64,000 bases of DNA from a virus: the IMG/VR virus record IMGVR_UViG_3300026484_000110. The stretch is one strand, 5' to 3'. Below are positions 38,808 through 41,213 of the stretch, one piece after another; positions within the stretch are counted from its first letter, which is position 1, and each line of letters opens with the position of its first letter. The translations under genes and the position numbers were made by a program. Under the pieces are notes generated by a model. It did no database searches. It was not told the origin of the DNA and saw only the letters and a program-made list of their open reading frames with translations.

Positions 38808-39386
38808 TTAATAATAGTCTCTCAGATCGGGTTGAATATTACGAATTTCTTCTGGAATACTCTCTTTAATATTTTTTTCTAGTCCTTCCATTTGTTTATT
38901 TAACTTATCTATTTTTACTAATACCATATCAGCAATAGTATCAGCCTCACGAATTGGTAAATTTAAATACTCTTTTAAAGATAATCCAGTATGTTTATAA
39001 ATATCTAATTCTAAATAATTTAATATTTCATGCTCTATACCTGACATCAAATACGGATCTTCTTCTCTTTTATATTCTATAGTAGTTAATGCAGGAAAAT
39101 CATTATTTAAATCAAATTGATTACTGGTATCATAAATTAATTTCTTTACTACGTCTGCTTCAGGATAGTTTAAAATTAAGTCTTTATTATTAGCTATAGA
39201 TTTAATATGTTTAAAAACAAATTTTAAAATACTAAATTCATCGTTCTCGGATATCAGCGGAGCTACAATTAAGGTTTGGAATTTATTTAATATATGATCT
39301 TCCAAACCATAAGCTTCTTCTATATATGAGGCTAGCTCTCTCCCAATTCCCTCAAAATTTTCTCGTACTGATATCCGAGATGGGTA
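38808..39386 (-). CDS. -1 frameshift extension (T-like part) of the upstream putative tail/baseplate assembly chaperone
   Basis: ORF track starts at a TTG (39305) with no SD; the frame is open without stops up to the slippery T7 run at 39392-39386. Confidence 0.6.
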   Translation of the reverse strand, partial: YPSRISVRENFEGIGRELASYIEEAYGLEDHILNKFQTLIVAPLISENDEFSILKFVFKHIKSIANNKDLILNYPEADVVKKLIYDTSNQFDLNNDFPALTTIEYKREEDPYLMSGIEHEILNYLELDIYKHTGLSLKEYLNLPIREADTIADMVLVKIDKLNKQMEGLEKNIKESIPEEIRNIQPDLRDYY

Positions 39387-40762
39387 AAAAAATAGTCAAA
39401 TACGTTTAACGGAATGAATGCTTTAAAGTTACTTTTATCATCGCTATCAGCTTTTTGAGATTCTTGACATATAGGACATACATAATCAGGTATACCTACT
39501 ATACTTACTAAACTATTGTTAATATAATCCACAATTTTATTTCTAATTTTTCTTCTAATATCTACGTTGTTACTTAATAGTTCCAATTCTTCATTTATAT
39601 CTACGATGTCTTCTGCTACCTTACCATCTATTACAATTGATTTTACGTAATGATTATAAATACCTAAGTATAGATTATTTAATACCATTATTTCTGCTTC
39701 TTTTATATCATTTATTACAGTTTTGTTTTTAATCATGTCTGTAGATAATTCAGTTAACTGTGTAATAAAATATTCACCTGCCTCTAAATATCTATTAATA
39801 CTAGGTGATTCAATATTTAAAGTCACCGCTACGTCACCTATTGTAAAGTTCAATGGTGTAGATTGATTAGCTTCTAATTCTTCTTGGTATTTTCTAATTT
39901 CATCCACATTAACAGATTTACTAGTCTTTCTACTCATTATTGATTTATGATATTCGGTTAGTTTACTCATATCCACCCAAAGTAATTTAGCAGGGTCAAT
40001 ATTTATTTCAGATTTATAATTACACTTAGGTGCATTATTTTCTATTATTACTGTATTTTTACATTGTAAAATATAGTTTACACCTTTTGGATACATAGAT
40101 TTAATTAAACCTAATACTAAAGGATATAAGTCTTGTAATTTAATATAATCAAAAATATCTTCACCCTCTGGTAAAGCTAAACTAGTATCTAATATAAATT
40201 GTTTAATCTTTTCTAAAAGTATCTTAGTAAACACTACTGAATGATTGCTGAAAATTAAATTATTTGTTTCCCTACCGACTCTACCAAATTCTTCAGATAA
40301 GGATAACATTAAGTTTACTTTATCTTGTTTAGTCATTGGTTTTATAGTTATCCAGAATCCACTATGCCATAATGGTATATGAGATAAGCTACCAATACCT
40401 AAGGCTTCTGCTAATCTGAGTTTAGCTAATGATCTATTACCTGATTTTTTAATACCTACTGTTTTCATTATCAGTAGCTTATCGTTTATTTTGGGTTCGA
40501 GTTCTAAATCATTGATATTATCTCTCACACCTACATTTTCTTTATTTGTTTTATCTATACTATCTAGCACCAATTCTAATGTAATTTTATCATCGGTAGT
40601 AAGTTCTTTTAATGCTGTTGTGTTTTTACTAATTTCTTCTATAAACTCTTTTATTGTTTTATAATTATTAGATGGTACTGTAATTCTTACTTCTTTTTTT
40701 AGTAATTTTTCAGTATCCAGTTCTTTAAAATCATTTACAATATCTTTAATTGTCTTTTCCAC
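39332..40762 (-). CDS. Putative tail/baseplate-hub assembly chaperone (G-like part)
   Basis: 476 aa; C..N...C and CPIC Cys pairs; ends ...DYFF encoded TAT TTT TTT. Confidence 0.5.
   Translation of the reverse strand: MEKTIKDIVNDFKELDTEKLLKKEVRITVPSNNYKTIKEFIEEISKNTTALKELTTDDKITLELVLDSIDKTNKENVGVRDNINDLELEPKINDKLLIMKTVGIKKSGNRSLAKLRLAEALGIGSLSHIPLWHSGFWITIKPMTKQDKVNLMLSLSEEFGRVGRETNNLIFSNHSVVFTKILLEKIKQFILDTSLALPEGEDIFDYIKLQDLYPLVLGLIKSMYPKGVNYILQCKNTVIIENNAPKCNYKSEINIDPAKLLWVDMSKLTEYHKSIMSRKTSKSVNVDEIRKYQEELEANQSTPLNFTIGDVAVTLNIESPSINRYLEAGEYFITQLTELSTDMIKNKTVINDIKEAEIMVLNNLYLGIYNHYVKSIVIDGKVAEDIVDINEELELLSNNVDIRRKIRNKIVDYINNSLVSIVGIPDYVCPICQESQKADSDDKSNFKAFIPLNVFDYFFTHLGYQYEKILRELGES
39386..39392 (-). 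other. Candidate -1 ribosomal slippery heptamer T_TTT_TTT
   Basis: Minus strand GAC TAT TTT TTT ACC; the -1 frame opens just before it and runs to 38808. Confidence 0.6.
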
Positions 40763-41213
40763 CTTCTGCTCCTTTTTGTTTTTCGAGTTCAGCCTGTAGT
40801 TCTGTTAGCAATGCTGCAACACTAGTATGTCCTACTACCTGTAATTGGTTAGCTAATCCTGCATAAGCTATAGTAGCATTCATATACAGTTCCATTTGTT
40901 TATCATCTTCTGGATTCACATCACCTGTAAAAAATACTGGTTGATCAGGCGCACCCTTAGAATGGCTAGCTTTTACAGTTACATATTGCTCTGTTAAATC
41001 GTTTAATGTTAAAACAATACCCTGTAAAGTTTTACTTAGGTTAGGATTATTTTCTATTTGTTCTTTAAATCTATTAGAAATCTCCATCATTTTCATATTT
41101 AAATCTGCTAAGGTTTTTCTAATATTCTCACTAGTCTCTGCTAAATCTTCCCATTTAACTACTTTATCCTCTACTTTATAATTTGTTTTTTTATTTCTTT
41201 TTTTCTTACTCAT
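40746..41213 (-). CDS. Hypothetical helical protein
   Basis: SD AAGGAG; 155 aa. Confidence 0.6.
   Translation of the reverse strand: MSKKKRNKKTNYKVEDKVVKWEDLAETSENIRKTLADLNMKMMEISNRFKEQIENNPNLSKTLQGIVLTLNDLTEQYVTVKASHSKGAPDQPVFFTGDVNPEDDKQMELYMNATIAYAGLANQLQVVGHTSVAALLTELQAELEKQKGAEGGKDN

Follow-up and report, generated by a model that had tools for sequence, protein, structure and literature searches.

A candidate -1 frameshift conserved at the gp77 locus of phiKZ-like phages probably joins two annotated open reading frames into one gene

Introduction

The tail assembly chaperones gpG/gpGT of phage lambda, E/E+E' of P2 and those of the Mu type depend on a -1 frameshift for their expression. 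Close to its 3' end, the upstream gene carries an X_XXY_YYZ heptamer, and a slip there yields, besides a short protein, a longer one that has the same N-terminal body and an added C-terminal part. In these systems, the downstream open reading frame (ORF) has no start of its own, and this arrangement persists among very widely diverged phages; P2-type slip sites also use a T run. Here we describe a locus with the same organization (for the two proteins, as judged from gene layout) in a 64,000-nucleotide stretch of DNA, hereafter called the window, from an uncultured phiKZ-like giant phage. The window forms part of the 186-kb IMG/VR virus record IMGVR_UViG_3300026484_000110, which has terminal repeats and originates from hydrothermal-vent metagenomes. 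At this locus, an ORF homologous to gp77 of phage phiKZ (ORF1) is followed by a smaller one (ORF2), and an initial inspection of the sequence (the original prediction) had proposed that a hidden -1 frameshift joins the two into a chaperone pair of the lambda G/GT type. We present evidence that ORF1 and ORF2 are probably a single recoded gene, the first part of which is probably related to a different assembly protein.

The gp77 locus differs from the lambda-type systems in several respects. The body of the lambda-type chaperones is ∼140 aa long, compared with 476 aa for gp77 in the window, and the two have no sequence or profile similarity; further, the lambda-type gene is flanked by the genes for the tail tube and the tape measure, whereas the gp77 gene is not. 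A second system relevant for comparison is T4 gp26 (paralogue gp51; Pfam family PF12322), in which two cysteine pairs and a C-terminal F-F align with those of ORF1. T4 gene 26 also has two products, gp26 and 26', but these are annotated as arising from an internal start and not from a frameshift. The 208-aa gp26 ends just past its F-F (E-F-F-E-L-L-stop; codons GAG TTC TTT GAG) and has no slippery site there. Finally, dnaX of Escherichia coli, like gp77, has a homopolymer-type heptamer and two forms (tau and gamma), the ratio of which is fixed in dnaX. However, the dnaX shift leads to early termination and is accompanied by an upstream Shine-Dalgarno (SD)-like element and a downstream hairpin, whereas at gp77 the shift would lengthen the product and neither kind of stimulator was detected.

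Results

A slippery heptamer in phase at the 3' end of ORF1

Based on sequence comparison, we put the probability at about 0.8 that ORF1 and ORF2 constitute one recoded gene, in which a -1 shift would give 476- and 651-aa forms, with ORF1 being a distant relative of gp26. The features of the locus are as follows.

39332..40762, minus strand: ORF1 (476 aa, phiKZ gp77 homologue, phrog_4585), with a GTG start at 40762 and a TAG stop at 39334-39332
39386..39392, minus strand: slippery heptamer T_TTT_TTT, in phase X_XXY_YYZ on Y457 (wobble base), F458 and F459
38808..39386, minus strand: -1 frame extension of 192 codons plus TAA, read as an open frame; the protein family is conserved
39332..39385, minus strand: dual-coding overlap, containing the 17-aa C-terminal helix tail in the zero frame and the start of the extension (YPSR...) in the -1 frame
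39303..39305, minus strand: TTG given in the ORF list as the first codon of ORF2 (165 aa), with no SD-like motif upstream
39361..39380, minus strand: weak 5-bp hairpin TCTCG ... CGAGA, beginning 5 nt 3' of the heptamer
40769..40774, minus strand: SD motif AAGGAG of ORF1, 6 nt 5' of the GTG, by direct reading of the letters

Codons 456-459 of ORF1 read GAC TAT TTT TTT (D456, Y457, F458 and F459) and are followed by ACC, and the ORF1 stop lies 17 codons 3' of the T7 run. In the -1 frame, a TGA at 39398-39396 precedes 192 open codons, which run from 39386 to a TAA at 38810-38808. Residues 1-459 of ORF1 and the 192 extension residues add up to a predicted long form of 651 aa. Thus, the ORF coordinates, the heptamer, the preceding TGA, the open -1 frame, the TTG lacking an SD motif and the 651-aa sum are all present as the original prediction had described them. 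We counted 26 runs of seven or more T's and 27 runs of seven or more A's across the window, which has a GC content of 28%; within ORF1, none of ∼440 other positions opens a stop-free 18-codon stretch in the -1 frame. Because T7 runs are common in the window, the case for a frameshift depends on the comparison of relatives.

The heptamer is conserved in phase among gp77 homologues

The comparison drew on 55 related loci from IMG/VR and on those of phiKZ, Bacillus phage AgentSmith, Burkholderia phage FLC9 and the Erwinia phages pEa_SNUABM_54 and phiEaH2. A perfect T_TTT_TTN heptamer was found in 49 of 60 loci, compared with 8.5 expected from codon usage, as calculated gene by gene from how often TTT, and T in third positions, are used. 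For genomes with a GC content of 45-59%, the corresponding numbers were 25 of 33 observed and 1.8 expected. Position 1 of the heptamer, which is the wobble base of a variable residue, is T in 53 of the 60 loci and carries 1.48 bits, compared with 0.1-0.3 bits for neighboring wobble bases. Further, in AgentSmith and pEa_SNUABM_54, where F-F is changed to F-L, the heptamer is still kept, as T_TTT_TTA and T_TTT_TTG, respectively. Together with a -1 frame that is open in every locus, the alignment of the ortholog pairs strongly supports the proposal of a hidden -1 frameshift at the F-F codons.

The same long protein would be produced if RNA polymerase, rather than the ribosome, slipped and added an extra U on the T7-T8 run in some of the transcripts. 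The site is a homopolymer of 7-8 T's in most loci, with the base 5' of the heptamer also being T, and lengthening the run, in 27 of 60; in addition, the phages of this group have their own unusual RNA polymerases, and no RNA stimulator of a ribosomal slip was found. However, the conserved trait is the in-phase heptamer and not the length of the run: 16 of the perfect heptamers have TTC as their second Phe codon, several runs consist of only six T's (T_TTT_TTC), and the run is lengthened solely on its 5' side and never on its 3' side. Some loci have five T's only, which is short for slippage by bacterial RNA polymerases. Because of the conserved phase, the occurrence of runs as short as five or six T's and the one-sided lengthening, a ribosomal slip by two tRNA-Phe is favored, and we consider transcriptional slippage an unlikely source of the long form, albeit the strongest of the alternatives.

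The weak TCTCG/CGAGA hairpin noted in the original prediction is present in the window, but a role for it as a stimulator was rejected because its folding is not significant (the 70 nt 3' of the site fold at -12.0 kcal/mol, z = -0.29) and it is not conserved, the closest relative, L005, not forming it. An overlapping -1 ORF accompanied by no perfect heptamer was seen in L024, L025, L041, L046, L048, L054, L058, L059, L027 and FLC9 (L002). In L040, L052 and L053, 118 nt separate the heptamer from the stop of ORF1, compared with 40-64 nt elsewhere, and in these loci the zero-frame tail has 37 codons and the two-frame overlap is twice its usual length.

A start-less -1 ORF accompanies ORF1 in all complete relatives

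Homologues of ORF1 occur in 230 named phage records, nearly all of them from phiKZ-like jumbo phages, and in metagenomes at 24-59% identity; its matches in PHROGs are only to families of unknown function. All 54 complete relatives from IMG/VR have the downstream ORF in the -1 frame, with its open frame reaching back 43-511 nt from the stop of ORF1; the same layout is present in phiKZ gp77, AgentSmith, FLC9, pEa_SNUABM_54 and phiEaH2. Overall, 59 of 59 complete relatives have a start-less -1 ORF of ∼150-190 codons that opens at or before the site, with the T run always inside it. By chance, as derived from the frequencies of -1-frame stops within the same genes, an open -1 overlap would be expected in 18.9 of 60 loci, and in 1.6 of 20 loci at a GC content below 40%; all were observed to be open. 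In phiKZ gp77 (PHIKZ077), the site reads ACT TTT TTT ACT and the -1 frame has 171 codons; in a count of 165 codons, the first start codon is codon 85. The phiKZ record has a 218-nt gap at this place, followed by the 80-aa PHIKZ076.4, which is the C-terminal piece of the gp77 -1 frame.

The peptide encoded in the -1 frame 3' of the site is also conserved (YP[STA]R, later HVxxxxFG), and a comparison of the window with L005 revealed that -1-frame conservation extends 5' of the TTG, through the ORF1 stop. In 41 of the 46 loci carrying HVxxxxFG, this motif precedes the first ATG, GTG or TTG, and the first start codon in the relatives may come as early as codon 2 or as late as codon 136 of the extension, in most cases following the conserved motif. 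In the window, the TTG at 39305 is the sole canonical start among the first 113 codons 3' of the slip site, the earliest ATG of the extension being codon 113; judged from these sequence features, the TTG is probably not a genuine start. A profile of the extension retrieved 1,798 cluster representatives. Each of the best 150 had been called as a short ORF (104-182 aa), and their first residues fall anywhere between profile positions 1 and 58, a sign of arbitrary start calls.

The model of the extension is mostly helical (predicted local distance difference test (pLDDT) score of 72), and the extension matched only small uncharacterized ORFs of other chimalliviruses. Comparison of the extension with the PDB (Foldseek, VIA-align) gave nothing meaningful (best Z 5.3, helix-loop-helix-like), and no similarity to T4 gp51 or gp26 was detected. 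A tblastn search of the extension against named phages gave no match at E 1e-3, the domain being detectable by profiles only, and a scan of viral contigs with ORF2 alone also gave no match.

These results bear on whether ORF1 and ORF2 could be two separate genes, with ORF2 being translated from the TTG at 39305 or by re-initiation and the T7 run being a by-product of Y-F-F in an AT-rich genome. Gene callers and all records examined, including six of named phages, do annotate two genes; T7 runs are frequent in the window; and F-F is conserved as an amino acid pair. However, the TTG has no SD-like motif, the first starts of the relatives are scattered and mostly lie beyond the conserved motif, and in no locus does a stop in the -1 frame separate ORF2 from the heptamer. 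Moreover, GC-rich genomes retain TTT TTT after a T wobble contrary to their own codon usage. A pair of independent genes is thus very improbable.

Both forms are suggested by the zero-frame tail and the absence of fusions

The zero-frame tail 3' of F-F is conserved family-wide (alignment A1), and a helix is predicted for residues 454-475. Because of this conserved tail and its predicted C-terminal helix, we consider the short form to be real and the shift to be partial. The N terminus of ORF1 (M-E-K...) agrees with those of its relatives in the same alignment. No in-frame fusion was found among 29 ORF1 homologues of up to 556 aa or in the best 150 of the 1,798 extension homologues, and a search for longer fused extension proteins found none, although this is weak evidence; the absence of in-frame fusions suggests that both forms are needed. 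The 686-aa protein of phiEaH2 was considered as a natural fusion and rejected, as it is an N-terminally longer ORF1 followed by the usual separate -1 ORF.

Two independent Logan assemblies (depths of 18 and 40) are identical over the stretch, T7 run included, and contigs from two related strains cover the run without a gap. In a ∼93% identical strain (2025 run), 39330-39403 is free of substitutions, whereas the adjoining 195 nt upstream contain 18; the absence of substitutions is expected where two frames code. Assembly or sequencing error, including the indel that the original prediction had named as a possible refutation, is excluded. Although homopolymers are error-prone and the window is from a metagenome assembly, neither an error nor a recently broken gene deserves further consideration in view of these assemblies and contigs, the family-wide conservation of the tail and a layout shared by ∼59 diverged relatives.

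A probable distant relationship between ORF1 and T4 gp26

A confident fold model was obtained for ORF1 (pLDDT 83, predicted template modeling score 0.85). Searches of ORF1 against Pfam gave no match, PF12322 included, and PF12322 has no match in the genome of the window either; NCBIfam gave weak zinc-finger matches only; and the PDB (Foldseek, VIA-align) gave no clear match and no gp26 or gp51 chain, the best hit (Z 6.7) covering a helical hairpin only. In BFVD, the ORF1 model matched gp77 homologues (E 1e-28). Weaker matches (E 4e-4 to 1e-2, template modeling score ∼0.45-0.57 on the target) were to many gp26/gp51-like models of ∼250 aa that bear the names 'baseplate hub subunit' or 'hub assembly chaperone'. 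PF12322 was assigned to 24% of the members of an ESM Atlas neighbor cluster.

Alignment by hhalign of the gp77 family (alignment A3, 55 members) with the gp26 family (alignment A4, nine members from named phages) gave a probability of 74.2% with an E value of 2.7e-5 over 173 columns. The match spans ORF1 residues 178-464, in the C-terminal two thirds of the protein, and gp26 residues 33-209, almost the whole of gp26, and aligns both cysteine pairs and F-F. The gp77 profile scored 54.6% with T4 gp26 alone and 5.5-14% with gp51 alone. The ORF1 cysteines C234, C247, C429 and C432 are near-invariant and form two distant pairs (the latter a CxxC near the C terminus; ∼40063-39467 in the window), which probably make up a zinc site that ties the middle of the protein to its end. 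Overall, ORF1 is likely to be an enlarged protein that is distantly related to gp26, the baseplate-hub assembly protein of T4. The role as a tail or hub assembly chaperone originally proposed is thus partly supported, on the side of a probable gp26-like hub factor. We note that the end of T4 gp26 coincides with the point at which the gp77 family would shift frame, and that, in T4, gene 25 starts on the stop of gene 26 (TAATG) and is in the -1 frame with respect to it.

Discussion

We propose that most ribosomes would read ORF1 to its TAG, giving a 476-aa protein that ends in the conserved C-terminal helix, and that, in a minority of ribosomes, two tRNA-Phe would re-pair one base back on the T_TTT_TTT heptamer (39392-39386). 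The last 17 residues would then be swapped for the 192-residue, mostly helical extension, giving 651 aa. The shift would be ribosomal and would need no strong stimulator; frameshift sites that have none occur among the known examples. The short and long forms may be required in a fixed ratio. By analogy, we infer that the pair may act as a two-form assembly factor that is expressed like lambda G/GT but does not belong to the same family.

Several observations weigh against this reading. The frequency of T7 runs in the AT-rich window makes the window alone weak evidence, and the 651-aa protein is a prediction from sequence. The heptamer is imperfect in 11 of the 60 loci (G_TTT_TTY, CTT_TTT_ATT or GTT_TTT_A/T), in which the -1 ORF is nevertheless retained; these could use a single-tRNA slip or polymerase slippage. 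Among the 60 loci, neither a common downstream RNA structure (mean z -0.37; 7 of 60 below -2) nor a conserved upstream SD-like stimulator was found. The functional link with gp26 is moderate, and only one of the 55 gp77 members reaches PF12322, at an E value of 0.0078, which is under the 24.5-bit cut-off. As for the genomic context, ORF1 is located near genes for a polymerase, the RNA polymerase beta subunit, the DNA polymerase and the major head protein, and gp77 of phiKZ lies in a neighborhood extending from the gp75 helicase to the gp82 polymerase. Lastly, a homologue in phage Churi was detected 15 min post infection, among non-structural proteins (PMC11849849).

With regard to the proposed membership of the lambda G/GT family, none of the tail-chaperone Pfam families was matched by the 55 gp77 members at E values of up to 1, and ORF1 is about three times too large. 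Because of this lack of a family match, the polymerase and head gene neighbors and the detection in Churi among non-structural proteins, membership is unsupported, and ORF1 as a lambda-type tail chaperone is rejected by its sequence, size and gene position. A more tentative idea, which we regard as possible but doubtful, is that the gp77 family is the long-sought counterpart of G/GT in T4-like and giant contractile-tailed phages, with two forms of a gp26-like hub-assembly body in a ratio fixed by the frameshift and with T4 gp26/gp26' as a reduced version; if so, the helical extension of the long form would recruit another tail or baseplate part.

We found no description of a gp77 frameshift in the full-text literature on phiKZ, Chimalliviridae, 201phi2-1 and jumbo phages. 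Much work is devoted to the nucleus-forming phages of the phiKZ type, which are also candidates for therapeutic use. A core gene present in all of them is apparently mis-annotated, as a gene of 475-600 aa followed by a gap and an arbitrary small ORF. Treating it as one recoded gene with two products would correct hundreds of genome records and would add to the known frameshifts one that is very widely conserved and lies elsewhere than in the classical tail-chaperone genes. It would also offer a handle on the assembly of the baseplate hub, the helpers of which, gp26 and gp51, are poorly understood even in T4.

Two further observations were made at the locus. The upstream ORF of 155 aa (40746-41213, minus strand) occupies the place that gp78 has in phiKZ. 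It shares 17 nt (40746-40762) with the start of ORF1, and this overlap suggests that translation of ORF1 is coupled to that of the upstream ORF. Within the extension, the 40 nt at 38973-39012 resemble, with 6 differences, a separate 3.2-kb contig that occurs at very high depth in both vent metagenomes (386 and 120); this is probably a chance AT-rich resemblance to another abundant element.

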